Shown here: positions 1,433 to 53,863 of the stretch, piece after piece | Position numbering within the stretch: the first letter of the stretch is position 1 | Layout: each line of letters begins with the position of its first letter | DNA from: Patescibacteria group bacterium | Lineage (GTDB): Bacteria; Patescibacteriota; Minisyncoccia; UBA6257; 2-01-FULL-56-20 | DNA length: 53,863 nt | NCBI GenBank assembly: GCA_024654525.1 | Contig: JANLHI010000015.1 | Coordinates: 1 to 53,863 of the forward strand | Direction of reading: 5' to 3' | Translations under genes and position numbers: made by a program | The notes under the pieces: generated by a model | What the model was told of the DNA's origin: nothing | Database searches by the model: none | The model's input: only the letters and a program-made list of their open reading frames with translations

Positions 1433-3238
1433 CTACGCCACTTCCGCTTGATAGCATTGTTCACAGTAAATAATCTCCTTTCGTTCCGGACCGTATGAAG
1501 TCTCGAACTCTATTTGGCAATGACCATCTCCATGGCTATGACTCACAAAGTTTTTATAAATACCGTTTTCCGAAGCAATGCCGGCACACTGACATTTCCT
1601 CACAAAAAACCTCGGGGAATTCCTCAATGCGAGCCGACTATAGTGACGACAATTCGGACAAAGACGTGGCAATGCGATATTCATCTGCTTGCAAAATGCC
1701 ACCTCTTCGGATACCACGCGGAACGCTCCGATACATTCTTCCTTGCACTCTCCCCGGTGTGCACACTCCAACACTTCTTGAACAACCTTATCACTTACCT
1801 CTTTGATGTGATCGGGAATTGAATCACTCTTTAAGGTAATGGGATATGTCTGACGCGTTGTGGGATACCACACAAATCCTTTATCTTTCGCCTCATGTTC
1901 ATCCAGCGGGAAAAACTCATATGCTTCGGTAGATTCATAAGGAAAAGGAGAAAGCTCCGATGGAAAAAATTCTCCGTAGGTATATATTCTTCCTTTCTTG
2001 TCCACGTACGGAATCTCGTGCATCTGCGCGATAATCCTTTCACGCAATTTTTCAAACTCATCCTTGGAATACTGCGTGTTGAAAATACAATATTGTTTCT
2101 TTTTAAGTCCAATACACCCGAAACAATCAGAGGAACCCGGACAGAATATGCAATACTCAAGATTTTTTACATTTGGAAAGTTATTCCAACAAAACCGAAC
2201 ATTGTATACACCCATACCCGCAATGAGAGTTTCATAGACAAGCTCGACATTCTCACCCCAATTTGAATAGTCGTAACAATCTTTGGAGGGTCCATCGAGA
2301 AAGTTCTGACAAAACTTGGAATCCTCGGTACCACGCACGCGGAAACATTGCTTCGCATTTTTCGACATGGATATATAATCCCCGCTTACGCCCAAATTTT
2401 GTCGCCCATGCATAAACTTATGCGGATACTTCTTCCAATGTGCGTATGCACGGCGCGTAAGTGCATCAAGCGATTTCGCAGAACCAATATCGAATGAGGC
2501 AAGCACTTCCGCGTAGCTCTCCTTGGTATGCGGTTCGTTCCAAATGTAATATGACTTATTCCGTAAACCAAAACATCCAAAACAATCGGAACATCCAACA
2601 CAATCTTTGGAAAGAATAACGCTCTGGCAATCTTCACAATCTACGGAGAAAAACGTCTTATAACATCGCATTGTGTTTAAATTTCCGTAACTCAATTCAC
2701 ATCGATTGGTCATATGACTATCCAAACAATGCTTTGATTCGTGATCCCAAATAAGATATATCGAATCTTCCGAACGCGTGGAAGCCCGGACAAGATAACA
2801 TCCCTTTAAATCGTTCGCATTGGTACAGTATTCACAGTTCACTAAATTCGTCACCGAATGTGCCGGCAACGGTACGGTATGGAAAAGGTCTCTAAACTGT
2901 TCGAAAAAGGGACGCTTAAAATCGTACACTCGTCCATAATCCATAGGATCCCACCCGTCTCCGTTCCAATACTCTTTCTCGTAAATTTTTATCGGACTTT
3001 CTTCGGGAAATAAAGAAAATATCTTCTCTCCCGTACGCGCATCCGTCTTCTTGAAAAGATGCCATGTATTGCGCCAACTCAATCTCCGCTGATACCGGCA
3101 ATGAGAACAAAATGTCGGTGGAGGCACCTGTATCTTCTCATAAAATGCAAAATCATCCGGTTCGATGATGAACTCATTCTTGCAATTTTGACAGGTTCGC
3201 ACTGAGCTCGCCGAAGTATTTTTTATTTCGCTGGTCAT
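1433..3238 (-). CDS. Cys-rich Zn-ribbon/repeat protein, paralog 2 (601 aa)
   Basis: CQNC...VPPPTFCSHCRYQRR, central CxxC/SxxC repeats, YGEFFP, CPNCRH, C-terminal YCEQCYQAEVA. ATGA overlap with the upstream paralog. Confidence 0.9.
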   Translation of the reverse strand: MTSEIKNTSASSVRTCQNCKNEFIIEPDDFAFYEKIQVPPPTFCSHCRYQRRLSWRNTWHLFKKTDARTGEKIFSLFPEESPIKIYEKEYWNGDGWDPMDYGRVYDFKRPFFEQFRDLFHTVPLPAHSVTNLVNCEYCTNANDLKGCYLVRASTRSEDSIYLIWDHESKHCLDSHMTNRCELSYGNLNTMRCYKTFFSVDCEDCQSVILSKDCVGCSDCFGCFGLRNKSYYIWNEPHTKESYAEVLASFDIGSAKSLDALTRRAYAHWKKYPHKFMHGRQNLGVSGDYISMSKNAKQCFRVRGTEDSKFCQNFLDGPSKDCYDYSNWGENVELVYETLIAGMGVYNVRFCWNNFPNVKNLEYCIFCPGSSDCFGCIGLKKKQYCIFNTQYSKDEFEKLRERIIAQMHEIPYVDKKGRIYTYGEFFPSELSPFPYESTEAYEFFPLDEHEAKDKGFVWYPTTRQTYPITLKSDSIPDHIKEVSDKVVQEVLECAHRGECKEECIGAFRVVSEEVAFCKQMNIALPRLCPNCRHYSRLALRNSPRFFVRKCQCAGIASENGIYKNFVSHSHGDGHCQIEFETSYGPERKEIIYCEQCYQAEVA

Positions 3239-4962
3239 ACGATTTCTGCATTATAACAAGCCTCACAATACACAATCTCCTTTCGCTCCGGCACGTACGG
3301 CGTTTCGAATTCGTTGGGGCATTGCCCCTCCGGGTGATGAGCGTGTTTCGCAGTATTCTCGTGAATCTTGTAATCGCACATACATTGACGATGCCACAGT
3401 TTTCGTGGCAATCGCAATGTAAGACGGCGGCGGTAACGGCATTCCGGACACAACCGCGGAATTGGCGTATTCGTGCGCCGATAAAAATCAAGCTCGGCTT
3501 GCACAATGTTGTAATTCCGCTTGCACCGCACACACGCAAGCGCTTCTTTCACAATTATATCGGGAACGTCTTTGATGTCGTCGGGGATACTTTCCGGTGT
3601 AAGCGTCTCCTTCCCGAACGTGCCGGGTATCACCTCTTCCCACTTGTACCCTTTCGCCGCCGCCTCCTCTTTCGTCATTGGCATATACACCTGTCCCTGC
3701 GTCTCGTTATAGCCAAAAGGCGAAAGTGTCGGTGGGAAAAATTCGCCGTATTCCCCCGTCTCTTTCATATGTGCGATAATTTTTTCTTTCAATGTCGCAT
3801 ACTCACTCTCCTCATAACGCTTGTTGAAAATGGAGTACTTCCCCTGTTTTATTCCCACGCACCCGAACAAATTTTCGCTGTTGTGGCAAGAGTCGCAATA
3901 TTCAAGATGGGAATTGTCGTAACTCAAGTGCGTAAACTTCACGTCGTAGTCGTGAATCAAGGCGTGGGACTCGTAAATCAACTCGCATGCATATCCATAA
4001 TGATAGGAATCCATGGTATTTTTCGCGTCACCGCACACGATGGCGTATTTCGAATCCTCTACTTTATGCGCGTCGAATGCATGTAGGCAACTTTTGGAAT
4101 TAATAATCGAGTTCCCGGACACCGCGGCTGACCTTTCAATAACCGCGAACCGCCGAAGCGCCCGCGCTTCAATTACCTCCCGGAACTGCACATATAACTC
4201 TTCCCGAGCACGTGCAGACCCCAACCTATATTCCACGATTTTTTTTTCGTACTCTTCTTTCGAGTATTGCTCATTCAGAATACAATACTGCTTATTCCTC
4301 AAATTCCAGCAAAGAAAACAGTTTGAGCAACCGCGAAGATCGTAGGAATAGAAACAATCAGTACAGTCTTTAAGGAGCGCACTATATTGGCAGTTATAAA
4401 TACGCAGGGAGTCCACACATTCATACGCGAGCTCCGCTCCCGCTTCAAAACTCATGAGGTAGCAATCCATACAATCTTTCGAGGGCTTGAGTACATTCGT
4501 GGAATACATAATATTCTCCGAATCGAATGTACCCATCGAAAGATAACAGTTCTTGTTGTTATTTGAGTGATTGGTATAATCCGAATTCACGCTGTTTTTG
4601 GTGAGCAACGCGATGCGCGGCACCTGAAGCTGCAATTCTTGCCATTGCGGAAAAAATGGCTTTGAGAAATCAAAGTCGTGTCCGTAATCAAAACCCGTCC
4701 ATTTATCCGACCAAAAACACGGCGGGCAATATACTTTGAACGGCTTGTTTGGCGAATAAATCGTTACCGCGCTTTTCCCGCATAAATCACAATTCCTTCG
4801 GTAGAGTACTCGCTCATTCCGCCATGCATACCTGCGACGCTGGCGGCAGTCCGGACACCGCACCGGCGCGGGAACCTTGAACTTCTCATAAAACTCAATA
4901 TCATCCGCCTCAATCGGAAATTGAATGCTACATTCTTTGCAAATTTGTTGTTCTGGAGTCAT
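3235..4962 (-). CDS. Cys-rich Zn-ribbon/repeat protein, paralog 3
   Basis: Same motif order. Start moved to MTPEQQICKEC (ATG 4962) to match paralog N-termini and avoid overlap with the divergent gene. Confidence 0.9.
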   Translation of the reverse strand: MTPEQQICKECSIQFPIEADDIEFYEKFKVPAPVRCPDCRQRRRYAWRNERVLYRRNCDLCGKSAVTIYSPNKPFKVYCPPCFWSDKWTGFDYGHDFDFSKPFFPQWQELQLQVPRIALLTKNSVNSDYTNHSNNNKNCYLSMGTFDSENIMYSTNVLKPSKDCMDCYLMSFEAGAELAYECVDSLRIYNCQYSALLKDCTDCFYSYDLRGCSNCFLCWNLRNKQYCILNEQYSKEEYEKKIVEYRLGSARAREELYVQFREVIEARALRRFAVIERSAAVSGNSIINSKSCLHAFDAHKVEDSKYAIVCGDAKNTMDSYHYGYACELIYESHALIHDYDVKFTHLSYDNSHLEYCDSCHNSENLFGCVGIKQGKYSIFNKRYEESEYATLKEKIIAHMKETGEYGEFFPPTLSPFGYNETQGQVYMPMTKEEAAAKGYKWEEVIPGTFGKETLTPESIPDDIKDVPDIIVKEALACVRCKRNYNIVQAELDFYRRTNTPIPRLCPECRYRRRLTLRLPRKLWHRQCMCDYKIHENTAKHAHHPEGQCPNEFETPYVPERKEIVYCEACYNAEIV

Positions 4963-5027
4963 TGCGTTACTTTCTATTATTCTCCATTCCACGCTATTGG
5001 GCAACCGGAGTACAATAAGACAATAGA

Positions 5028-6503
5028 ATGTCTCGTACTGCAAAAATAATCCTAATTCTTATATTCCTCCTCGCAGGATTTTTTCGCCTTTACCAACTCC
5101 CTCACACTCCCCCGGGACTCTATCCCGATGAGGCAATGAACGGGAATAACGCGATTGAAGCACTGCATACGGGAACATATAGGGTATATTATCCCGAGAA
5201 CAACGGACGCGAGGGACTCTTCATTAACATTCAGGCGATATTTCTTAAACTCATCGGCACAAACGAACCGTGGGTATTACGCCTGCCAAGCGCACTATTC
5301 GGAATCTTCACGGTGTTAGGGATATTTTTCCTTGCACGAGAACTATTCAAAACATACTCAGAAAAATATGCGGTATATGTTGGTTTACTATCTTCATTCC
5401 TCCTCGCCACGAGTTTTTGGCATATTATATTCTCCCGTATCGGTTTTCGCGCAATTCTTGCACCATTTTTCCTAGTATGGGCATTGTACTTTCTTCTCAA
5501 ATCCCTCCGCACAGAAAATTCCTCCGCGAACTGGCAGATTCCATATTCCATATTCGCCGGAATTCTCTTCGGTGCCGGCTTTCATACCTATATCGCCTAT
5601 CGCGTAACTCCCGCGCTCATCCTCATCCTTATTGCTTGGATATGGTGGCTTTATAAAGAAAACCGCAAGCGTATTCTCCTTGTTTCCTGTTTTTTTATTT
5701 TTGCTTCTGTAATAACCGTTTTTCCTCTTGGACTTCATTATCTTGGAACCCCCGACGACTTTTTCGGTCGCACCGGGCAAATCTCCGTTTTTTCTTCCCC
5801 TGCTCCTCTTCACGACTTGGGAATCAACATTATAAAAACCGCCGGAATGTTTACCATTCACGGGGATGAAAACTGGAGGCATAACTACGCAGGACGACCC
5901 GAGCTTTTCTTTCCCGTAGGAACAATGTTCCTTGTTGGGTTTATTCTTGGTATCAAAAATTTCCTCAAAAAGGAAACCACGTTCCCTTTTCTTATCCTCT
6001 TTTCATGGCTAGGACTCGCCGCGCTCCCTGTGGTCATCTCGAACGAAGGACTCCCGCACGCACTCCGCGCCATCCTCATGATTCCACCCGTAATTATCCT
6101 TGCTTCCGTGGGAACTGTCGCACTCTACAACACTCTAAAAGCTTATCTTCCAAAAATTATTTTCCTTTCTACTTTCTATATTCTCATTTCTTTAATGATT
6201 ATCGAACCCTTCAATACCTACTTCCTCCGCTGGGCACATAACTCCAATACTCAAGGTGCCTTCGCCGCCGATTACGTCGCGATAGGTCATGAAATCAACT
6301 TACTGCCCAAAAAAACCCAGAAATACATGGTGATTGAAGCCGGTGGCGTGGATATCCGGGGAATCCCCATGCCGGCACAAACAGTAATGTTTATCACAAA
6401 TTCCTTCTTGCCGGAAAACCAAATAGAAAAGAATATTCACTATATCCTTCCCGCTGACCGCATTACAATCCCCTCAAACGCCGAGATGTTCGAAATCAAA
6501 TAA
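5028..6503 (+). CDS. ArnT/PMT-like (GT-C fold) multi-pass membrane glycosyltransferase
   Basis: PPGLYPDEA near the N-terminus, LRLPSALFG, HIIFSRIGFR and many hydrophobic segments. Confidence 0.8.
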   Translation: MSRTAKIILILIFLLAGFFRLYQLPHTPPGLYPDEAMNGNNAIEALHTGTYRVYYPENNGREGLFINIQAIFLKLIGTNEPWVLRLPSALFGIFTVLGIFFLARELFKTYSEKYAVYVGLLSSFLLATSFWHIIFSRIGFRAILAPFFLVWALYFLLKSLRTENSSANWQIPYSIFAGILFGAGFHTYIAYRVTPALILILIAWIWWLYKENRKRILLVSCFFIFASVITVFPLGLHYLGTPDDFFGRTGQISVFSSPAPLHDLGINIIKTAGMFTIHGDENWRHNYAGRPELFFPVGTMFLVGFILGIKNFLKKETTFPFLILFSWLGLAALPVVISNEGLPHALRAILMIPPVIILASVGTVALYNTLKAYLPKIIFLSTFYILISLMIIEPFNTYFLRWAHNSNTQGAFAADYVAIGHEINLLPKKTQKYMVIEAGGVDIRGIPMPAQTVMFITNSFLPENQIEKNIHYILPADRITIPSNAEMFEIK

Positions 6504-8570: not shown

Positions 8571-10265
8571 TTAAGCGACTTCATTTTGGTAACAACCCTC
8601 GCAATACACGATTTCGGGACGGCCGGGGGCATAGGAGGTTTGTATATTCACACCACACTTTGAGCATGTACGACTAAATATTTCCATCGGATTAAGCTGT
8701 GTGATGCGCGCGCGGTCGCGACAAAGAGGACATTGGCGCGGAACGGGAAGATTAAAACGTTTTAAAAATTGAAGCTCCATCGGGATAATCTGATAATTCT
8801 TACCACATTGCTCACACTTTAAAATTTCTTTTATGAGAGTGTCGGGAACGTCTTTAATATGGTCGGGAAGCACAATGGTCGCATCGCGATACTCGCGTAC
8901 ATCCTGATCCCTCCATAAAAATCCTTCTTTGATTGCTTCCTCTTTTATTGAAGGAAACCATTCCTGCGCCGCAGACTCGTTATATGTCCACGGACTCATT
9001 GCGGAAGGCAACATTTCTCCATAGCGATATTCTCTCCCTTGCGCATCACGATAAGGAATCTCTGCCATTTGCTTTTTGATACGCGCTACCAAATCCAAAT
9101 ACTCGCTTTTCGTATACTGCTTATTCAATATGCAATACTCCGCGCCTCCCCGAAGCCCCACACATCCGAAAAGGTTCCCGGAGTTCATACATCCGAAGCA
9201 ATACTCAATATCACGACACCCATAACACCATACGGAAAATTTATTATGCGACGCAGTAATTCCCGTCCACACCGTGTCATACATCCATTCACTGTTGTCA
9301 CCGAAAAACGTCCAATCATATGCATTGCGCGCCGGTCCGTTTTTCAAAAACTGGCAATACCGCAAATTCTCACCATTTGCAAGGAGATATGAATTCTTCA
9401 CATTTTTTGAAGCATAAATATACTCCCCCGAAACGTCATAATTTTTCAAACCGTGAAAGTGCCTTCGGGGATACTTAAGAAGTAACAAGTCCACTTTAGA
9501 CTTGAATTCTTCAATTCCCTGCACGGAACCGAAATCGAATTCTTTTTGCAATTTTTCGTATTCTTCTTTTGTATATTGTTCGTTGAAAATACAAAATTGT
9601 TTATTTCTCAAGTTAATGCATCCGATACAGTCGGAACATCCTGCAATATCCCGCGAAAACCATATATTATGGCAATTATCACAGTCCTGTGAGAAAAACG
9701 CCTGATAGCATTTATTTATCCGAAAAGATCCATAACATCCTTCAATATTATTCGCGAATGAAGTATCGTAGGATCCTTTTGCGTCAACGATAGTATTTAA
9801 ATATCCATCATCTTCTCCATTGGTAATTCGAAAACATAAATAACAGTTTTTGAGTCCCGATGCAGCATTGCAGTAATCACTGTTTACCATTGTGGAATGC
9901 GCAGTATAAAGATTTGGAAGCGGAACTCTGAGCTGGAGCTCATGAAATTGCTCGAAAAAAGACCTCGAAAAATCATAATCGTATCCATATCCTTTCGGAT
10001 CCCACTGATCAGACCACCATATGTCCTGCCGATACATTTTATAAGGTGACTCCGAATGATGCGTGGTAATAAGCATATCCCCCGTAATATCGCACTTTCG
10101 TTTATAGAGAATGCGATATCCCTGCCACGCAAGACGCCTCACAAGTCGGCACCGCGGACACCACGTCGGCGGCGGGACATGGATGGTTTCGTAAAACGCA
10201 AAATCATCGGGCTCGATGGTAAAATCGAATTTACAATTTTGACACTGGCGAGTTTCGCTATTCAT
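8571..10265 (-). CDS. Cys-rich Zn-ribbon/repeat protein, paralog 4 (564 aa)
   Basis: MNSETRQCQNCK...VPPPTWCPRCRLVRR ... CPLCRDRAR ... YCEGCYQNEVA. Confidence 0.9.
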   Translation of the reverse strand: MNSETRQCQNCKFDFTIEPDDFAFYETIHVPPPTWCPRCRLVRRLAWQGYRILYKRKCDITGDMLITTHHSESPYKMYRQDIWWSDQWDPKGYGYDYDFSRSFFEQFHELQLRVPLPNLYTAHSTMVNSDYCNAASGLKNCYLCFRITNGEDDGYLNTIVDAKGSYDTSFANNIEGCYGSFRINKCYQAFFSQDCDNCHNIWFSRDIAGCSDCIGCINLRNKQFCIFNEQYTKEEYEKLQKEFDFGSVQGIEEFKSKVDLLLLKYPRRHFHGLKNYDVSGEYIYASKNVKNSYLLANGENLRYCQFLKNGPARNAYDWTFFGDNSEWMYDTVWTGITASHNKFSVWCYGCRDIEYCFGCMNSGNLFGCVGLRGGAEYCILNKQYTKSEYLDLVARIKKQMAEIPYRDAQGREYRYGEMLPSAMSPWTYNESAAQEWFPSIKEEAIKEGFLWRDQDVREYRDATIVLPDHIKDVPDTLIKEILKCEQCGKNYQIIPMELQFLKRFNLPVPRQCPLCRDRARITQLNPMEIFSRTCSKCGVNIQTSYAPGRPEIVYCEGCYQNEVA

Positions 10266-45816: not shown

Positions 45817-46533
45817 TCACTCCCACCATTTTATAACAACAACTCCTGCGCTTCCTGCGGTACTTATATAATTTCCTCCATTCCCACCACTCCCATAGCC
45901 CCCGAGAGGACCTTTTGCTCCTGGACCACCCTGAGAAGTATACTCAACCGAGTTTTGCCCCCCTGCTCCTCCCGCCGCAGCAAATCCCGTGCTCTGCAGT
46001 ATAGAGCGACCTCCAACCCCCCCCGCGACCGCAAGAGATCCGAAATAAGAAGCACTTCCACTTGTTCCAGGTTGACCTGGCCCACAACTACTACAATAAC
46101 TCCCCCCTCCGCCTCCTCCGCCCACTGTCACTGGAACTGTGCTTGATGTTGAGACGTCCACGGGAAAATCAAGCGCAAAATAACCGCTCCCACCGCCACT
46201 TGAGTTACAGTTGACTCCCGTACAGCCCCCCCCTCCTCCGCCACCACCGCCGATGAGAGACACAAAAACGACTGTCACTCCCGAAGGACGTGTCCATGTG
46301 CCATCTGCGGTGAATACTTGAGCCTTTGGGGATTTCCCTGCTGCGTCCACATACGATTTACTTGCAGCATCCGTATTATCTGATGGCGTTGAAAGGCCGC
46401 GAATATAAACACCGGAGCCAAGACTAATCACCCCCCCGTTTGAACCCAATGTCGAATTTGCGTACCACACCATGCCACCGATAATCAACAACATTCCCAC
46501 TACACTCCCAAAAAAAAGTATATGTTTCTGCAT
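45817..46533 (-). CDS. Secreted or anchored Gly-rich fibre-like protein
   Basis: N-terminal hydrophobic helix, DAASKSYVD, FTADGTWTRPSGVTVVFVSLIGGGGGGG...GSAGVVVIKW (tail-fibre Gly-rich type). Confidence 0.75.
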   Translation of the reverse strand: MQKHILFFGSVVGMLLIIGGMVWYANSTLGSNGGVISLGSGVYIRGLSTPSDNTDAASKSYVDAAGKSPKAQVFTADGTWTRPSGVTVVFVSLIGGGGGGGGGCTGVNCNSSGGGSGYFALDFPVDVSTSSTVPVTVGGGGGGGSYCSSCGPGQPGTSGSASYFGSLAVAGGVGGRSILQSTGFAAAGGAGGQNSVEYTSQGGPGAKGPLGGYGSGGNGGNYISTAGSAGVVVIKWWE

Positions 46534-47736: not shown

Positions 47737-47763
47737 ACTCGTCGCCCCCGTGCCGATATTGCC
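47737..47763 (-). repeat. Intergenic copy of the GNVGIGT junction sequence
   Basis: ggcaatatcggcacgggggcgacgagt versus ggcaacgtcggcatcgggacgacgagt (52137->52111), 22/27 identical. It also forms a 17/18 inverted repeat with 48290..48307. Confidence 0.7.
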
Positions 47764-47811
47764 TGCGCGTTGAACCATACCTCATCTCCATATTGTTACA
47801 GTATACCAAAT

Positions 47812-48222
47812 CTACTTTTTCGGGGGTGTGAATTTCTGCCACGCCTTCTCGAGCCGGAAAATCTTTGACCGCACCGCTTCGTACCGCGCCATAAGGTTGT
47901 CGAGAAGGGAAATATCCAGCTTCTCGCCGTAGATTCCCTTCATGTGTTCGAGGTACACCACCATCTTGTTGCACCCCGCCATTGCCCGCTCAAGAAGCAA
48001 AATCCCCGTTGCATGGTCGCCGAAGCGCAATGAGTGTGCGGTTGCAAGTGTAAGCGGAACCCCCCGCGCCGTGTCCGCCATCCCTTCTCCAAAAGGGCAC
48101 TTTGACTTCTCGAGTTGAGGGAGAATGTCCTTCGCTACAATCACAGAACACGCAAGGGTCGCTTGATACACTTCCAGATCACGAAAGCTACGAACTGGTT
48201 TTTTTGGTTGGTATTTGTACAT
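47812..48222 (-). CDS. Four-helix-bundle protein (23S rRNA IVP/Avd-like)
   Basis: VRSFRDLEVYQ..VPLTLATAHSLRF..AMAGCNKMVVYLE. Confidence 0.8.
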   Translation of the reverse strand: MYKYQPKKPVRSFRDLEVYQATLACSVIVAKDILPQLEKSKCPFGEGMADTARGVPLTLATAHSLRFGDHATGILLLERAMAGCNKMVVYLEHMKGIYGEKLDISLLDNLMARYEAVRSKIFRLEKAWQKFTPPKK

Positions 48223-48307
48223 CGCAGTGCCGACGTTGTCTTATGTTTTACAATCCGTCCCTTTGTCTTCTCGGCTCAACGCACAATAAAATATCGGCAC
48301 GGAGGCG

Positions 48308-49558
48308 TCACACCACTATCACTTTTTCTCTTTTCTCCAAAGGAATTTCGACCTTTGTACCATCCTTGAATCGCACTCTTTTCTTTGGGCGTTTTAGCTT
48401 CCGCACCACATGGAGCGGGTAAAACTCAAAGTATTCTTTCTCGTCGAACCACGCGCACTTGAATTCAAAAAGCCGCAGGCCTGTCAAGCGCGACAAAGCA
48501 AGCGCGTACCACGTGAGTTGTTCAATGGGACGCTCCTTCGCGGCATTCGGTTTGTAGTCCAGAATGTGCACGCACCCATTGCGGACTTGGACTAAATCTA
48601 TGTGCCCGGTGAGGAGATTGGGCAACCCCGTGCCACGATTGTCCTGCCGCTTTTGCGCGGTCCCCTCGGACGGCTCAATGCGAGCATCAATATCGGCACC
48701 GGGACGCGCACGCCTTCCTCCTTTGAGTTGCATTCCTTCCTCTCCTAATATGTTGAATCCAAGCTCGTTTTGGAGATGTTTAATATCTTCCCGGCGTATA
48801 TACACCGGCACTTCCGTCGCCACCATCACGCTGTCGTTCGCAATCATAAACCGTTGGATTTGTTCGTGCCGCTCCTTATTCTCGCGCACGGAGGCAAGCA
48901 CGAACGCCGCGAGCCGGTTTGCGTAGTTGGTTTTTCCCTTCACAATCATTTGCGCCTTATCGAACCGCGATTTCACTTCCGACATCCGCGCACCGTCTTG
49001 GAAATACTGGTGCGGCGTTTCCGTGGAAACCGCATCAAGATAGTCCTTGAGGCGCGAGAGACGCCGGTTGCCAAATTCCTGAAGCATCAAGGCAATTTTT
49101 GCGCGGTGGTAACGGAAACGATACAGCTGACGGTGCGCGAGCGTGACCACTTCGACCGTTTCGCGGGGCTTGCAATACTTTACTGCGTAAGGACGAAGTC
49201 TCGCATAACGGCAAAGGTCTTCGTGCTCGTCAATCCATGCGGAGAGCGTGGCGGGCTCCGGCGAAACACCAAACTTTTTCTTCACAAGCGCGCACGCCTC
49301 CTCGCGCGTGAAGCCAAGATTGTAATAACTCATCGCCTCGATCACGATGGCAAGCGGAAAATGTTTGCCCTTCACATCGCTCCACGTGAATGTCCGCCCG
49401 CACTCCGGGTTTTTGCAAAGGTAGAGTTGCACCGTGCGATGCTTGTTATCCCGCAAGCCGCGCTTTACGAATTCTTTCGATTCGCAATACGGACACGCGA
49501 GCGCGGCGACATCGGGATCGCGCTCACGGCGGGCCGACATTGCCACAATTCGCGTCAT
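48308..49558 (-). CDS. IS1-InsA-like Zn ribbon/HTH fused to a C-terminal PD-(D/E)XK nuclease
   Basis: CPYCES..VKRG..QLYLCKNPECGRTF; helical HTH-like segment (TLSAWI); TEVPVY, GHIDLVQ, ILDYKP, QLTWYALAL. The start could be 49540. Confidence 0.8.
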   Translation of the reverse strand: MTRIVAMSARRERDPDVAALACPYCESKEFVKRGLRDNKHRTVQLYLCKNPECGRTFTWSDVKGKHFPLAIVIEAMSYYNLGFTREEACALVKKKFGVSPEPATLSAWIDEHEDLCRYARLRPYAVKYCKPRETVEVVTLAHRQLYRFRYHRAKIALMLQEFGNRRLSRLKDYLDAVSTETPHQYFQDGARMSEVKSRFDKAQMIVKGKTNYANRLAAFVLASVRENKERHEQIQRFMIANDSVMVATEVPVYIRREDIKHLQNELGFNILGEEGMQLKGGRRARPGADIDARIEPSEGTAQKRQDNRGTGLPNLLTGHIDLVQVRNGCVHILDYKPNAAKERPIEQLTWYALALSRLTGLRLFEFKCAWFDEKEYFEFYPLHVVRKLKRPKKRVRFKDGTKVEIPLEKREKVIVV

Positions 49559-49830
49559 CGATAGAGGTCATGCGTTCCCACATCATGGAGCAACGCCACG
49601 CCATCACGGGGAAACGAAACAAGGATTCGGTAAGCCTGTACTACAGAAAACGACCAAAAGCCGGAGAGCTTGCCGCCGAGCTTGTGTGTTTTGAGAAATA
49701 GGCTGAAAGGATTATTTTCAAACATCCTCACCCGCGCCACAACATTGCGGCGGAATTCCGGAGGAAGTCTCCCGAACGCACGCTCGAAATGCGAAGTTGT
49801 TTCAACGCGAACGCCGTGCGCCTCGTGCAT
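49555..49830 (-). CDS. RelE/YafQ-type mRNA interferase toxin
   Basis: TTSHFERAFGRL..FENNPF..LKTHKLGGKLSGFWSFSV..YRILVSF..LHDVGTHDLYR; start at ATG 49830. Confidence 0.88.
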   Translation of the reverse strand: MHEAHGVRVETTSHFERAFGRLPPEFRRNVVARVRMFENNPFSLFLKTHKLGGKLSGFWSFSVVQAYRILVSFPRDGVALLHDVGTHDLYR

Positions 49831-50023
49831 GGAGGGGATGTGAAGTAGTAAGAAACGTCTCAAAGGTGCGGGTTTCCCCTCTGCGAAATTCCCGTGTTCC
49901 TTCACGAGCAATGCGAAGCACGTCCTCCACGCCAAAACTACGGCCACCCTGACGCCATCCTTTAGGAATACGAATGATGATTTCCTTTTTTGTTTCGGTA
50001 ATTGTAGGTACTCCTGTTTCCAT
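49802..50023 (-). CDS. Probable cognate antitoxin (73 aa)
   Basis: Small ORF directly upstream of and overlapping the toxin; a TTGACG-16-TACAGT promoter-like sequence lies 6 nt before its ATG. Confidence 0.7.
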   Translation of the reverse strand: METGVPTITETKKEIIIRIPKGWRQGGRSFGVEDVLRIAREGTREFRRGETRTFETFLTTSHPLHARGARRSR

Positions 50024-50084
50024 ATCCTTACTGTATCAAAATGTGGCATGACGTCAAACAAGACCATTTCACGATTTTCTTATA

Positions 50085-50189: not shown

Positions 50190-50444
50190 TCATACTCTTT
50201 TTGAAGATTTTATAAGACCGTTGATCAATTTATGGACGTGTACTGATTGATCGTACATTGTATGGAAATCGCTCTGGGAAAGAAAACTGGCATCGCGTGC
50301 CACATGTAATTGGCTTTGAACCTCTCCAACAGAACCGCGCGCCATCGCATAAAACTGAACTTTTTCTTTGGAATGCTCCCGATTAAATTCCTCGGCGATG
50401 TTTGAAGTAACGGAAACCGCAGCACGCCGCATCTGATTCGCCAA
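50190..50444 (-). pseudogene. 5'-truncated four-helix-bundle (23S IVP-type) gene
   Basis: QMRRAAVSVTSNIAEEFNR..KEKVQFYAMARGSVGEVQSQL. The N-terminal FRDL/VWQ helix is missing and an in-frame TAG lies just upstream. Confidence 0.8.
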
Positions 50445-50492
50445 ACAATTTATGATTGGCTTTCTTACGGTGACACCCGACTATGAGGAAAA

Positions 50493-50534
50493 GGAAAGGT
50501 TCAACCTTGCCAAATGGCAAGGTTGAACCTTTCC
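50493..50534. repeat. Nested palindrome: 20-bp perfect arms, each containing AAGGTT(C/G)AACCTT
   Basis: ggaaaggttcaaccttgcca-aa-tggcaaggttgaacctttcc. Confidence 0.95.
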
Positions 50535-50621
50535 GGATTTCCACTTGACTTTTCTTTTTCGGTTGGTAACATGGAGGTACAAGTGCCTTCGGGCTCGCCC
50601 TGCGCAAGCAGGGAGATAAGT

Positions 50622-50658
50622 CAAAAAGCCGTCAAAACAACCCTTTGACGGCTTTTTG
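50622..50658 (-). terminator. Hairpin with 15-bp arms spanning the 3' end of the PemK gene
   Basis: caaaaagccgtcaaa...tttgacggctttttg. Confidence 0.65.
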
Positions 50659-51030
50659 TATACGCTCGAACACATCCTTCTCAAGGAAACCGACTTTATT
50701 AGTAAACCGCTTTGTATCTACAACGCGGACTTGAGAAATCAATGCGGATGCGCTCTGTCCCTCTACAATCCCCGCTGGCACACGCATTTTGTGTTTTTTT
50801 GAAGAAGTCGTGAGCGGTACCACTAGGCACGTGTGCGGACCGAGTCCTTTCAAAATAAGCACCGGGCGCTCGAATTCCATCCCCGTGCCATCCTCCTCAA
50901 AGCCGACGTTTGCTCCAAGTGAGCACCACCACACCTCCCGCTCATGATAAAGTTTACCCACACGGGCGTGATGAATCTCTTTTTTCTTCTCATTCCACCC
51001 ATCAAAGTCTTTTTTGTGCTTTTTCTCCAT
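50632..51030 (-). CDS. PemK/MazF-family toxin with no adjacent antitoxin
   Basis: HEREVWWCSLGANVGFEEDG..RPVLIL..VVPLTT..ISQVRVVDTKRF. Confidence 0.88.
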   Translation of the reverse strand: MEKKHKKDFDGWNEKKKEIHHARVGKLYHEREVWWCSLGANVGFEEDGTGMEFERPVLILKGLGPHTCLVVPLTTSSKKHKMRVPAGIVEGQSASALISQVRVVDTKRFTNKVGFLEKDVFERIQKAVKGLF

Positions 51031-51064
51031 ATCACACATATCACGAGTCCTTTGATATCCAATC

Positions 51065-51370
51065 TCACGACTTTCTCGCTTTTAAATCCTTATTATGGCT
51101 ATTCGTGAGACCCCGCACCTTGTCCAAACCACACCGCTTCTTCAGTTCCTGATACGCCTTCCCGAAATATTTTAGTTGCTTTTCTCGCTTCCGCGCACAC
51201 CATTCGTGAAGATACGCTTCGTAATACACGAGTGATACGGGAAGGCGATACTTCGTAGCAAATACCGAGCCTTGGCGATGTTCATCAAAGCGCCTCTGTA
51301 AGTCGTTCGTTGAACCGATATATAATTTCTCATCGCGCTGGCTCTTCAACACATACACATAGTACATCAT
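51065..51370 (-). CDS. Small stand-alone GIY-YIG nuclease (101 aa including read-through tail)
   Basis: MMYYVYVLKS..LYIGSTNDLQRRFDEH..YYEAY..ARKREKQLK. Confidence 0.92.
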   Translation of the reverse strand: MMYYVYVLKSQRDEKLYIGSTNDLQRRFDEHRQGSVFATKYRLPVSLVYYEAYLHEWCARKREKQLKYFGKAYQELKKRCGLDKVRGLTNSHNKDLKARKS

Positions 51371-51385
51371 GGACAAGGTGCGGGG
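51111..51385 (-). mobile_element. Putative 275-bp GIY-YIG mini-element with 16-bp terminal inverted repeats and 5-bp flanking direct repeats
   Basis: TGAGA[ccccgcaccttgtcca ... tggacaaggtgcgggg]TGAGA. The inverted repeats are perfect and overlap the ATG and the C-terminal LDKVRG codons. Confidence 0.75.
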
Positions 51386-51420
51386 TGAGATAAAAACGGG
51401 ATTAACAAGCTCAACACGAA

Positions 51421-51546
51421 GGCAAACTCGGCATCGGGACGGTAAATTTCGGAACCAGACCAAGCATGAAAATCACTACTCCTCAAACCCGCACCACAGT
51501 TCTATACAAACGATTTTACGACCTTGCGCTACCAAAGGTAGCATAG
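51421..51546 (+). other. Inverted copy of the GNVGIGT junction heading a start-less 41-codon frame (possible silent C-terminal cassette)
   Basis: ggcaaactcggcatcgggacg matches the junction at 19/21. It reads GKLGIGTVNFG...LPKVA*, with TAG at 51544..51546 abutting the giant gene's stop at 51547..51549. Confidence 0.55.
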
Positions 51547-53863
51547 TTATTTTCTTCCTGGAGGAACCTCCTGTGATGCAGGGTCAAACTCCCTTACGTC
51601 AATCCCGTTCACACCGTCATGGTTGAGATTTCCCCATTTCGTGTAATCCACGCGCGGAGCGGAAAGTTGGTAGGAAACCGAAACGGGGCGGTCAGCATAA
51701 AGCGTAATCTCCTCCCGCACAGGATTCAGCTCATACCACACCTTTGCTTCTCCTTCCGGCGTAAGGAACACCGAGAGCCGATTCCATGCGGTTTTAACCC
51801 CGAAATTGCTGGTTTTCTTGAAAAGCCACAGGTCAGAACCTTCTGACTCGTTTCCGAACGCAATCACATGTGTGTAGACGTTTTTCTCTGATTTTGTGAG
51901 TGCGACCTTCCCCGTCGTCTGCGTCCGCACTCCGCCCACATTATCGGGGCTGTACGTCGCGTAATTGATTCCCTCGATGGTGAATACCGGGTCAAAGGTT
52001 CCTGCGGTGATTTTACCCGCACCTCCCCCCACCACCAACACGTCCGTGGAAGTTGCTCCGACACGCGCGGTAGTCGCCCCACCGCTCGCAATGTCAAGTT
52101 TATAACTGGGACTCGTCGTCCCGATGCCGACGTTGCCGCTGCCTAAAATAGTCATTTTCTCTACAAATCCACTTCCCGAAGTGTATCCAAAAAAGTCTAA
52201 ACCGTATGTGTCACCTGTATCTCTCATTTTAATTGCAGCTACATTGGTAGGTGATCCACCATCAGTAGAAAAGTAAAGACCACCATTATATGCGGTGCCA
52301 CCTGTCGCATCATGTCGTATCCTAATACCAGACGAACCATCTGTTCCCGACTTATACACATCAAGAGCATATCCCGGCGCCGTCATCCCGATGCCGACGT
52401 TGCCGTTTGTATCGATAACCTCTCTTACTAAATTATTAGTAATGAAAGCTAAACTTTCGCTGCCTGCCGTATATATTCCATGTCTGAACGCGGCACCAAA
52501 TCCTTGAATATCGGCGGCGTCGTTTATGGCAAATTTAATGCCCCCATTTGTAGCAGGGTCTACTACATAAAATTGAGCTAAACCCGTAACTGATGTTTTG
52601 CCGACAGGTGTTGAAGCTACTTGTAATTTAGCAGTGCTTGGCGCCGTCGTCCCGATGCCGACGTTGCCGGAGGTATCTATCACCATTTTTGAGCCAGCGA
52701 CTGTTTCACCGCCACCTGTAATGAATGAAATACCTCTCTGAGTTCCCGTTCCATTTTTGTTCGTCCCTATTTTGAACCAGCCTGCTTCGTTGCTCATTCC
52801 CAAAAACATATAGCTAGAATTGTTGGGGTCAGATGCCGCCCAATTTATAAGGCCATACGATTCAGCTCCATGCCCTACATCCACGCGGCCGACTACATCA
52901 AGTTTCGCTCCCGGACTCGTCGTCCCAATCCCGACGTTGCCGTTGAATGCAAAAGTTCCAGGCTGTGCATTGTAACCCGTAAAATAGAGCAGGGCACTCG
53001 CACTAAACGCCTGGTTACCGCTTTCGATATAGTTCTTCCCGCCGCTCCCGCCAAACCAAACTTTGCTTGTCCCATCGCCGACATAAAGCCCACTTCCTCC
53101 GGAAAATACCGCGGAGGTGCCCACAACTGCGCCACTACTACTGACGGTAAATTGATTACTAGCCCCAACTGACAACAATGCCGTCGGCCCCGTCGTCCCG
53201 ATGCCGACGTTGCCGCTCGTATCCATGAACATGCCAGTGTTGAAAGTCCCCGAAGCGCTTGAATGAGTTTGGATCTGTAAAGTTGAAGCATAAGAAGTGA
53301 CCGAAGACATCCGGCTGGTAAACTTGGTGCTATAATCCCCCGCGACCGCGTCATCACGTCCCATAGAAAATACAATATCGCGGTTTGTGCCATGCCCCAG
53401 CGAAAGATGCATAAGATTTGTGGCCGTGCTGTCCGCGCCTGCACGGTGGATTTGCAAAGGTGCGTTCGGTCCCGCCGTCCCAATGCCGACGTTGCCGGAA
53501 GTTGCCAAAATCGTAACTCTCGGGTTATAAGTTGTTCCGTTATAGTCTCCGATAACCTGCCTACCTTGACCCGATGACCCCGTAGAAAAATACAAGTCAT
53601 GTTCATAAGAATTTCCTGCCATATCCGTTCCCAAACCCATCCATGCTTGGGAGTCTGCATCCAGTCCGTAAGTTTGTATTCTTGGACCGCCGGCAAAAGC
53701 TCCCCCAACCATAATAGCCGGCGCGGCAGTGCTGGTTTTCTGAACTTGCAACTTATACGATGGTCCCGTCGTCCCTATCCCAACCCGGTCATTCGTGGCA
53801 TCGATATACATCACATCCGCAGTGGAGTTGTAGTGCTGGAATTCATAGTTTCCTTTGGTGGAA
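51547..53863 (-). CDS. Giant GNVGIGT-module surface/fibre protein, C-terminal part (5'-truncated by the window edge)
   Basis: The frame is open to the window end (STKGNYEFQHYNSTADVMYIDATNDRVGIGTT...). Seven VGIG junctions are spaced 264-294 bp apart, followed by a distinct C-terminal domain (DPVFTI..SDLWLF..VSYQLSAPR). Confidence 0.9.
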   Translation of the reverse strand, partial: STKGNYEFQHYNSTADVMYIDATNDRVGIGTTGPSYKLQVQKTSTAAPAIMVGGAFAGGPRIQTYGLDADSQAWMGLGTDMAGNSYEHDLYFSTGSSGQGRQVIGDYNGTTYNPRVTILATSGNVGIGTAGPNAPLQIHRAGADSTATNLMHLSLGHGTNRDIVFSMGRDDAVAGDYSTKFTSRMSSVTSYASTLQIQTHSSASGTFNTGMFMDTSGNVGIGTTGPTALLSVGASNQFTVSSSGAVVGTSAVFSGGSGLYVGDGTSKVWFGGSGGKNYIESGNQAFSASALLYFTGYNAQPGTFAFNGNVGIGTTSPGAKLDVVGRVDVGHGAESYGLINWAASDPNNSSYMFLGMSNEAGWFKIGTNKNGTGTQRGISFITGGGETVAGSKMVIDTSGNVGIGTTAPSTAKLQVASTPVGKTSVTGLAQFYVVDPATNGGIKFAINDAADIQGFGAAFRHGIYTAGSESLAFITNNLVREVIDTNGNVGIGMTAPGYALDVYKSGTDGSSGIRIRHDATGGTAYNGGLYFSTDGGSPTNVAAIKMRDTGDTYGLDFFGYTSGSGFVEKMTILGSGNVGIGTTSPSYKLDIASGGATTARVGATSTDVLVVGGGAGKITAGTFDPVFTIEGINYATYSPDNVGGVRTQTTGKVALTKSEKNVYTHVIAFGNESEGSDLWLFKKTSNFGVKTAWNRLSVFLTPEGEAKVWYELNPVREEITLYADRPVSVSYQLSAPRVDYTKWGNLNHDGVNGIDVREFDPASQEVPPGRK

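Follow-up and report, generated by a model that had tools for sequence, protein, structure and literature searches.

Why does the DNA word that encodes the module boundaries of a fibre-like gene recur, solo and in inverted pairs, in and around a nuclease gene of the same chromosome? The question is raised by a 53,863-nucleotide stretch of DNA (positions 1–53,863 of contig JANLHI010000015.1 in the Patescibacteria assembly GCA_024654525.1; this whole stretch is referred to below as the window). In it, a gene with repeated GNVGIGT peptides is followed on the minus strand by genes for a nuclease and a four-helix-bundle (4HB) protein. The window is bacterial chromosome and, going by its relatives, falls within Paceibacteria/Parcubacteria in the Candidate Phyla Radiation (CPR). 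Judging from sequence comparisons, the nuclease–4HB pair is probably a DNA-cutting module aimed at the word at these boundaries, hereafter the junction. With belief and doubt about evenly balanced, we further propose that the two genes form a conserved Paceibacteria operon that acts as a free-standing homing-endonuclease-type module associated with GNVGIGT fibre genes. In the window the operon stands alone, without intein halves. The genes in question are the following.

48308–49558, minus strand: 416-amino-acid nuclease with a four-cysteine zinc ribbon (residues ~22–58), a helical middle and a C-terminal RecB/Cas4-type PD-(D/E)XK domain
47812–48222, minus strand: 136-amino-acid 4HB protein, a divergent member of the 23S rRNA intervening-sequence (IVS) protein/Avd superfamily
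51547–53814, minus strand: GNVGIGT-repeat fibre-like gene (755 amino acids) with six junctions ~270 bp apart
52117–52137, 52384–52404, 52648–52668, 52921–52941, 53194–53214 and 53476–53496: the six junctions of this gene

The two proteins of the operon

The zinc ribbon of the nuclease is of the IS1/IS1595 type. It matched NF050000 with 30.0 bits (cut-off 28, E = 5.7e-7) and NF048018 with 27.1 bits (cut-off 27), which bears out the InsA-type ribbon of the original prediction, made from the sequence alone. Among 20 homologues, the Ogr_Delta zinc finger was matched in 19 and Zn_ribbon_InsA, weakly, in 3. A search for a DDE domain was negative: the IS1 transposase model NF033558 reached 14.9 bits against a cut-off of 100, and it did so over the zinc ribbon only. 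The predicted nuclease domain was confirmed by a match to PF12705 (PDDEXK_1; 24.4 bits, cut-off 22, E = 3.3e-5), a family recognised in all 20 members, in which D321, D334, K336, Q347 and Y351 are invariant. This set of motifs (D / D-x-K / Q-x-x-x-Y) is typical of RecB/Cas4 nucleases. The four-cysteine iron–sulfur cluster of Cas4 is missing, as C368 is the sole invariant cysteine in the C-terminal half of the 20 homologues, and PF01930 was matched in one of them (E = 0.056). The helix-turn-helix (HTH) expected after the zinc ribbon came out weakly, with three predicted helices at residues 69–111 (predicted local distance difference test, pLDDT, ~64–77) and a single profile match to HTH_33 at E = 0.13; the middle helical region matched no family. 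No cas genes were present in the annotated neighbourhoods (loci L001–L005, L442, L443 and the contig of homologue P0008). PADLOC returned a weak, generic Cas4-like match to the nuclease domain and no membership in a defence system.

The 4HB protein of the window had no Pfam match at E ≤ 0.1, and PF05635 was matched by 15 of 20 members of its family at E ≤ 1 (best 1.4e-5). Its AlphaFold2 model (pLDDT 87) consists of four helices. The top eight matches in the PDB were chains of 2RLD and 2GSC, both of the IVS-protein family (template-modelling score 0.65–0.86, root-mean-square deviation ~2.2 Å); the next resemblance was to bAvd of diversity-generating retroelements (DGRs), with a score of 0.5–0.6. 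The fold of the Avd-type bundle that had been read from the sequence is thereby borne out. Both proteins are basic (the isoelectric point of the 4HB protein is 9.5), and both belong to large families: more than 2400 nuclease homologues with 55–87% identity (E ≤ 0.001) were found in Paceibacteria/Parcubacteria, and the database count for the 4HB protein exceeds 400 at the same threshold.

The operon in related loci

For comparison we used 82 Paceibacteria loci selected by nuclease homology, of which 78 were long enough to show the 4HB gene; upstream genes were counted in 58. In 75 of the 78 loci the nuclease is immediately followed by the 4HB gene in the same orientation, and a gene with the consensus junction lies upstream on the nuclease strand in 45/58. 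Linkage of nuclease homologues to both partners, a check proposed in the original prediction, came out positive. Wherever a 4HB gene is present (79 loci), it has the orientation of the nuclease and is never inverted, so that the suggested inversion of this segment is unlikely, and we rejected it. Neither a reverse transcriptase nor a recombinase was found among the genes of the annotated neighbourhoods listed above or among 10 large open reading frames of the window. The analogy with DGRs consequently ends at the fold; the DGR link of the original prediction found no support and was rejected too.

In 19 of the 82 loci, a GNVGIGT gene is broken by a split intein, and the nuclease–4HB pair is placed between the two intein halves, as detected with hidden Markov models built from the intein halves of locus L003. 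This placement is a point that the original prediction missed. The layout known as a fractured gene consists of a host gene with an N-intein, a free-standing endonuclease, and a C-intein with the rest of the host gene (Dassa et al. 2009, PMC2677866). Stand-alone copies of the endonuclease and hairpin-forming motifs 5′ of its gene were reported in the same study (PMC2677866). Our literature searches on the junction peptide, CPR palindromic elements and CPR split inteins found no description of the present system.

The 19 loci fall in three deep clades of the nuclease tree and share one order on a single strand: host gene with N-intein, (MazF)–nuclease–4HB, and C-intein with the rest of the host gene. 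The upstream gene closes with '...KLxVEGQ|CVTGDT...TxxHP', and '...AHN|TY...' stands at the start of the downstream gene. In L003, the giant gene on the upstream side has the ending '...GNVGIGTTNPLQKLHVEGQ|CVTGDTLL...TSTHPYL', which comprises intein blocks A and B, and the first 89 residues of the gene after the 4HB gene match positions 69–155 of the Intein_splicing profile. This C-intein ends in 'IFAHN|TYINGNVGIGTT...', and the gene continues to a Peptidase_S74 domain. In L003 and the 18 other loci the operon occupies the position of a homing endonuclease, after block B ('TSTHPYL'); in L025/P0088, extein, N-intein and nuclease even form a single reading frame. The presence of the pair between intein halves in 19 relatives suggests a homing-endonuclease-type origin.

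One clade has the intein between two junctions, 12 codons past the first, which matches the consensus, and 4 codons ahead of the second. The second junction, immediately behind the intein, is degenerate, with ~2/7 third positions matching as against ~6/7 elsewhere by our own count, as would be expected of a site that must escape cutting. In other loci, which lack the intein, fibre genes have a C-terminal Peptidase_S74-like domain that contains the motif S-x-x-R-x-K. The fibre gene of the window ends in a non-intein C-terminal domain of its own, and its product matched no Pfam family.

Copies of the junction word

The pattern GGCAAYRTCGGCA, with at most one mismatch, occurs nine times in the 54 kb of the window against 0.18 expected, and shuffled sequences never reached nine. 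All nine matches are on the minus strand between 47.7 and 53.5 kb, namely at the six GNVGIGT junctions (52125–53496) and at 47751, 48228 and 49532. The 21-nt consensus (17 fixed bases, up to three mismatches) gave 12 matches, 10 of them in 47.7–53.5 kb, compared with 0–1 in shuffles; positions 1–47,000 held just two three-mismatch matches, which is chance level. All the copies listed in the original prediction were found at their places, and its suspicion of local enrichment proved right, since the motif is not evenly spread either in comparison with shuffles of the window or in the flanks of relatives. The copy at 47737–47763 is identical to the junction at 52111–52137 in 22 of 27 positions, as had been proposed, with a corrected chance probability of ~8e-4. 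Likewise confirmed was the 12/14 copy at 48227–48240, which ends 5 nt before the start codon of the 4HB gene.

Alignment of all AANNTCGGCA sites in the 82 loci defined two classes of motif: the in-gene junction, GGCAACGTCGGCATCGGGACG, and a 'unit' of the form (CTCAACGC-N3)-GGCAA-NN-TCGGCA(C/G)-N-GGGACG. Units are ~21 nt long, with GGCAA-NN-TCGGCA(C/T)-N-GGGACG as their short form, and nearly identical to junction-coding DNA (junction 24-mer GGCAACGTCGGCATCGGGACGACG). They stand solo or in reverse-then-forward pairs (29 pairs), which form palindromic elements of ~85–130 bp around a small GTCCC...GGGAC hairpin. At least one unit is present in 60/82 loci. Strict units occur at 0.35–0.44 per kb from 2 kb upstream through the operon, and none was found more than 3 kb away in the flanks on either side. 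The window contains the following copies.

47737–47775, minus strand: solo forward unit, GTTCAACGCGCA-GGCAATATCGGCACGGGGGCGACGAGT, 50 nt 3′ of the 4HB stop codon
48223–48307: 85-bp palindromic element that makes up the entire nuclease–4HB spacer, from stop codon to ATG
48621–48706: 86-bp palindromic element, in frame in the nuclease gene, with arms at 48621–48643 and 48686–48706 and a central GTCC..GGAC
49505–49544, minus strand: head-to-head pair of units in nuclease codons 5–18, GGCAATGTCGGCC (one mismatch) and the reverse copy GGCGACATCGGGATCGCG
51409–51441, plus strand: full unit GCTCAACACGAA-GGCAAACTCGGCATCGGGACG between the GNVGIGT and GIY-YIG genes, with 0 mismatches to the 21-nt consensus

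The element inside the nuclease gene lies between the conserved VPVYIRRED segment (E249) and the catalytic D321. Its minus strand encodes RARPGADIDARIEPSEGTAQKRQDNRGTG, the reverse arm giving RPGADIDARIE and the forward arm DNRGTG. It had been described as an insert bracketed by copies at 48621 and 48688; the bracketing stands, with the qualification that the two arms together are the insert. For this reason 48621–48643, which fits the motif only with a 1-nt indel, was counted as a copy. The insert is missing from an 82%-identical homologue (P0002, locus L001), and unit-derived peptides occur in the same loop, at two different positions, in 24/104 homologues. In-frame copies are also found in a loop of the 4HB homologue P0187 and in an N-intein.

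The element between the two genes reads CGCCTCCGTGCCGATATTTTATTGTGCGTTGAG ... GACAACGTCGGCACTGCG on the minus strand, directly followed by the ATG. The inverted repeat of 47743–47760 and 48290–48307, taken originally to enclose the 4HB gene, is real (17/18), but 29 elements of relatives are arranged like the one in this spacer, so the 48290 arm pairs more naturally with 48223–48240 than with 47743 across the 4HB gene. A unit followed by the 4HB ATG is also found in L017 and L012. The closest relative, L001, has an unrelated repeat in place of this element: at 3200–3300, its nuclease–4HB spacer contains two copies of another 40-nt palindromic repeat (TCTCCCTT..AAGGGAGTGGCC.AAGGCCGAGGGATTT). A gene for an IS200/IS605-type Y1 transposase (4609–5313) lies 0.9 kb downstream in the same locus.

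The solo unit behind the 4HB gene is kept with L001 in 25 of 26 positions, while the flanking spacer is not, and its equivalent in L003 encodes the C-terminal tail of the 4HB protein, GNIGTGTTSFKY. Unit pairs at the 5′ end of the nuclease gene are present in L012 and L017 as well, and in 26/78 loci a unit lies within 260 nt 5′ of the zinc ribbon. Tolerance in frame, inverted ends and variable presence between close relatives, which are features of miniature inverted-repeat transposable elements (MITEs) and Rickettsia palindromic elements, were all observed for the palindromic elements.

Units also mark intein/extein borders. In the N-intein of L003 (4641–4952), an in-frame unit just past block A encodes ...AEGNIGSGTWDY..., and at 6597 in L030 a full unit encodes SSAQRTGNLGTGTT, the start of the C-extein.

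We rejected several other identities for the motif. It is confined to one locus, which disposes of a DNA-uptake sequence; integron-like attC sites were discarded because the toxin–antitoxin cassettes of L008 have no units between them. A resemblance to CRISPR (clustered regularly interspaced short palindromic repeat) sequences (GTCGCCCCC...GTTGAAC) was dismissed as well, given that there is no array and the copies are solo or inverted.

Codon fixation at the junctions

We compared codon use at 240 junctions, defined at the protein level, in 41 of the loci selected by the nuclease. The codons GGC AAC GTC GGC ATC GGG ACG are each used in 87–96% of cases, whereas the same residues elsewhere in these genes use all codons. 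Fixation of ~90% holds across hosts of 31–62% GC, and units too keep their GC-rich sequence in hosts of 31% GC. By contrast, the GC content at third codon positions (GC3) of the nuclease gene ranges from 0.23 to 0.91 and follows that of the host (r = 0.86). Synonymous positions can thus drift in these lineages, but the sequence of junction and units is retained. Copies in reverse orientation encode unrelated peptides (RPxADI), which indicates identity at the level of DNA. In AT-rich hosts, an N-terminal extension of the 4HB protein keeps GNFGxG with changed codons. Identical modules are duplicated inside fibre genes.

Samples collected blind to codon use gave a different picture. Among 284 viral junctions codon use was near background, and a metagenome sample was bimodal, with its three nuclease-bearing contigs in the fixed class. 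The exact 23-mer GGCAACGTCGGCATCGGGACGAC is present in at least 120 viral contigs of IMG/VR with 29–65% GC, including two giant-virus bins; none carries the nuclease, the 4HB gene or palindromic units. These contigs may come from phages that infect CPR bacteria, from CPR DNA binned by mistake, or from independent carriers. As a scan with an exact 23-mer is biased by its own seed, scans with degenerate patterns were used instead. A protein query with the fibre gene against viral contigs picked up non-junction patterns and a single weak locus. No relatives of the nuclease were found in IMG/VR, and a phage-borne module was rejected on this ground.

Two contigs from different samples, L003 and L004/L005 (13,335 bp), differ only at positions 9107, 9110, 9113 and 9116. 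All four are synonymous third positions in one junction (GGC ATT GGC GAT versus GGT ATC GGG GAC), and the difference reflects either gene conversion confined to the junction or a misassembly at the repeated word.

Neighbouring genes

The order on the minus strand of the window is GNVGIGT-repeat gene, GIY-YIG, PemK/MazF-like, truncated 23S_rRNA_IVP, antitoxin/RelE-like pair, nuclease, 136-amino-acid 4HB protein and a coiled-coil gene. The genes between the fibre gene and the nuclease are listed below.

51065–51463, minus strand: small GIY-YIG nuclease gene, between the fibre gene and the MazF-like gene
50632–51039, minus strand: PemK/MazF-like gene (PF02452, E = 4.6e-13), often, though not always, found upstream of the nuclease
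50190–50444, minus strand: second four-helix-bundle gene (23S_rRNA_IVP) with a clear PF05635/TIGR02436 match
49802–50023, minus strand: antitoxin-like small open reading frame
Within 49555–50067, minus strand: RelE/YoeB-like toxin, weak match (TIGR02116, E = 0.012)

In the related loci, this interval is where toxin–antitoxin pairs, Bro-N, IVP and GIY-YIG genes pile up. Twenty-six loci have a MazF homologue, and in 18/58 it immediately precedes the nuclease. Homologue P0112 carries a GIY-YIG domain as an N-terminal fusion to the nuclease; together with the GIY-YIG gene of the window, this indicates that a second selfish-type nuclease recurs at this spot. The second four-helix-bundle gene is N-terminally truncated, because its match spans only positions 28–109 of the profile. 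With the RelE-like pair it makes up a ~1-kb insert between MazF and nuclease that L001 lacks. The toxin gene ends on the nuclease ATG, with a 4-nt overlap (ATGA) suggestive of co-transcription.

Between the MazF-like and the truncated IVP genes lies a perfect 19-bp palindrome, GGAAAGGTTCAACCTTGCC-ATTT-GGCAAGGTTGAACCTTTCC (50479–50550, core 50493–50534); the 201 nt around it have a folding z-score of −6.6. The 4HB gene of L012 is followed by similar AAGGTTCAACCTT hairpins. They represent a second hairpin family, unrelated to the units. No Rfam family was found at the units, and sub-threshold matches to miRNA models fell on this palindrome only.

Other genes of the window are housekeeping genes (ribonucleotide reductase, RecG, class-II tRNA synthetase). 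GC content is 0.52–0.54 at 48–50 kb and ~0.45 elsewhere in the window. At 45817–46533 (minus strand), next to a signal peptidase gene, a 238-amino-acid protein is encoded with a signal-like N-terminus, a Gly_rich_2 match (PF21722, E = 1.5e-9) and runs of 7–9 glycines.

Weighing the explanations

The intein position, the intact catalytic core, the presumably sequence-reading zinc ribbon and the tight co-location with the conserved 21-nt word together argue for a homing-endonuclease-type module that targets the junction. In such a module the zinc ribbon, perhaps together with the HTH, would recognise the word and the PD-(D/E)XK domain would cleave close by. Repair from another junction copy would then spread the operon or the intein, with exchanged fibre modules as a by-product. 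The units at the 5′ end of the nuclease gene and before the 4HB ATG might serve as operator or translation-control sites, and the 4HB protein as a cofactor or restrainer of the nuclease.

A number of observations weigh against this proposal. The link between the proteins and the motif is one of position only, and free cutting of the consensus junction would break the genome's own fibre genes. A selfish endonuclease does not account for the fixed junction codons, and to our knowledge no homing endonuclease has an obligatory 4HB partner. The nuclease gene is nearly single-copy (2/80 genome loci share an assembly with another, that is, 1–2 copies per genome); with GC3 that tracks host GC and an amino acid identity of 55–70%, this describes a long resident, strongly constrained gene and not an invasive one. 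The window has no match to either intein half (best E = 0.15, elsewhere in the window). The AlphaFold2 model of the nuclease is poor (pLDDT 51) and too low for a fold search, and a PDB sequence search with both family profiles gave nothing meaningful and turned up no solved relative of the nuclease. Finally, the copies predicted to form a hairpin at the nuclease start (49505/49533) are present, but they fold no better than shuffled sequence, and neither do the other copies in the window (z-scores +0.97 to −0.74); palindrome arms show no co-variation at the NN positions (29 pairs). The last point argues for a sequence that is read and not for a maintained helix, and on both grounds selection for a structured RNA was not supported. 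Long residence, strong conservation and fixed codons suggest that the module is at least partly domesticated.

The 'site-specific DNA-rearranging module' of the original prediction takes domestication further and differs from our proposal mainly in who benefits. Here the 21–24-nt junction would be a recombination signal at which the nuclease, with the 4HB protein, makes regulated breaks, and repair from one junction copy to another would shuffle, add or remove modules in frame to the advantage of the host, which we regard as possible though unlikely. In its favour are the fixation of junction codons across hosts so different in GC, set against the use of all codons for these residues elsewhere, and the lack of fixation in viral junctions sampled blind to codons. 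The strong conservation and compositional amelioration of both genes, their persistence beside complete, intein-free fibre genes, the identical modules duplicated within genes, and the two near-identical 13.3-kb contigs that differ at four synonymous sites of one junction also speak for it. Yet no rearranged alleles were observed, and since junctions are all direct repeats, the main outcome of simple cutting and rejoining would be loss of modules. Fixed codons could also stem from a lineage effect or from nuclease-free gene conversion, and the split-intein position argues for a selfish origin. The specific version, in which the codon-fixed junction is a recombination signal and a domesticated homing endonuclease with its 4HB partner programmes fibre-module shuffling in CPR bacteria, seems to us slightly less likely again. 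The same doubt applies to its two corollaries, that the palindromic elements are repair footprints of breaks or else control sites, and that the system would generate diversity by means of a nuclease and so stand apart from DGRs, shufflons and invertases.

Two further explanations fit less well than either a homing-endonuclease-type module or fibre shuffling. The units might act on RNA or protein, as translation-control or terminator hairpins or through selected G-N-x-G-x-G peptides, with the nuclease a general repair or defence neighbour. Free-standing endonuclease genes of fractured loci do have 5′ regulatory hairpins (PMC2677866), one unit abuts the 4HB start codon, the GNFGxG peptide outlives its codons in AT-rich hosts, and PADLOC saw a weak Cas4-like match. 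This explanation is nonetheless improbable in view of hairpins no more stable than shuffles, arms without co-variation, reverse copies with unrelated peptides, units that persist at 31% GC and a nuclease that belongs to no known defence system. The remaining candidate, a non-DDE transposon as raised in the original prediction, would make the nuclease a transposase, and the units and elements its terminal inverted repeats and MITE-like derivatives. The IS1/IS1595-type ribbon, the element arms of ~33 nt, presence or absence between close relatives and in-frame insertion at different positions are in its favour. It fits poorly, and is the least probable of all, with one or rarely two copies per assembly, a conserved position beside fibre genes, GC3 that follows the host and units never farther than 3 kb; no pair of repeats surrounds the nuclease gene, target-site duplications were not observed, and the DDE domain is lacking.

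Comparison with known systems

If the proposed homing-endonuclease-type module is real, two families of 'hypothetical proteins' gain a first functional handle, and the fractured-gene arrangement gains a new endonuclease architecture and a structural gene as host. It would also mean that a module-boundary word is conserved at the level of DNA and not of protein, and it would supply a candidate sequence-specific nuclease with a 21-nt site that is directly testable. Should the module drive fibre shuffling, it would be a new bacterial route to adhesin diversification. The cells of CPR bacteria are attached to those of their hosts, and the large modular fibres on their surface are prime candidates for a role in host recognition.

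With shufflons, tail-fibre invertases and the recombination of T-even tail fibres the locus shares a short DNA word at module boundaries and an adjoining enzyme gene. Unlike in shufflons and invertases, no tyrosine or serine recombinase was found, in-gene sites are direct and not inverted, and no inversion was seen. Rickettsia palindromic elements and other MITE-like or repetitive extragenic palindromic repeats are short palindromes tolerated in frame in coding genes. The same tolerance is seen here in the nuclease loop, the 4HB loop and an N-intein, but the copies stay within ~3 kb of one operon and their ends are a coding motif of a neighbouring gene.

The individual proteins likewise resemble known ones in part. 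The four-cysteine ribbon, above the NCBIfam cut-offs, is shared with IS1 InsA and the N-terminal domain of IS1595, which reads the inverted repeats of the transposon, a possible parallel to the reading of units here; the DDE domain, gene-enclosing repeats and multi-copy dispersal of these elements are absent. The nuclease domain has the invariant D...D-x-K...Q-x-x-x-Y of RecB, AddB and Cas4 (PF12705), without their helicase partner or four-cysteine iron–sulfur cluster, and it is fused to a zinc ribbon and has a variable loop that takes palindromic inserts. The 4HB protein resembles the 23S rRNA IVS protein and Avd in its fold, its basic charge and its place beside a selfish or diversity-linked element. 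It differs in that it is not encoded in an rRNA gene, lacks a reverse transcriptase and template/variable repeats, and has a nuclease as partner.

As for the system as a whole, the layout in 19/82 relatives, the stand-alone copies and the hairpin-forming motifs at the 5′ end of the endonuclease gene are those of fractured genes (PMC2677866). In contrast to these, a repetitive CPR gene for a structural fibre serves as the host, and not one for a phage enzyme of DNA metabolism. The endonuclease combines a zinc ribbon with a RecB/Cas4-type PD-(D/E)XK domain in place of a GIY-YIG or Vsr-like one, it is accompanied by a 4HB gene (75/78 loci) and often by MazF, and its gene is compositionally ameliorated and highly conserved.

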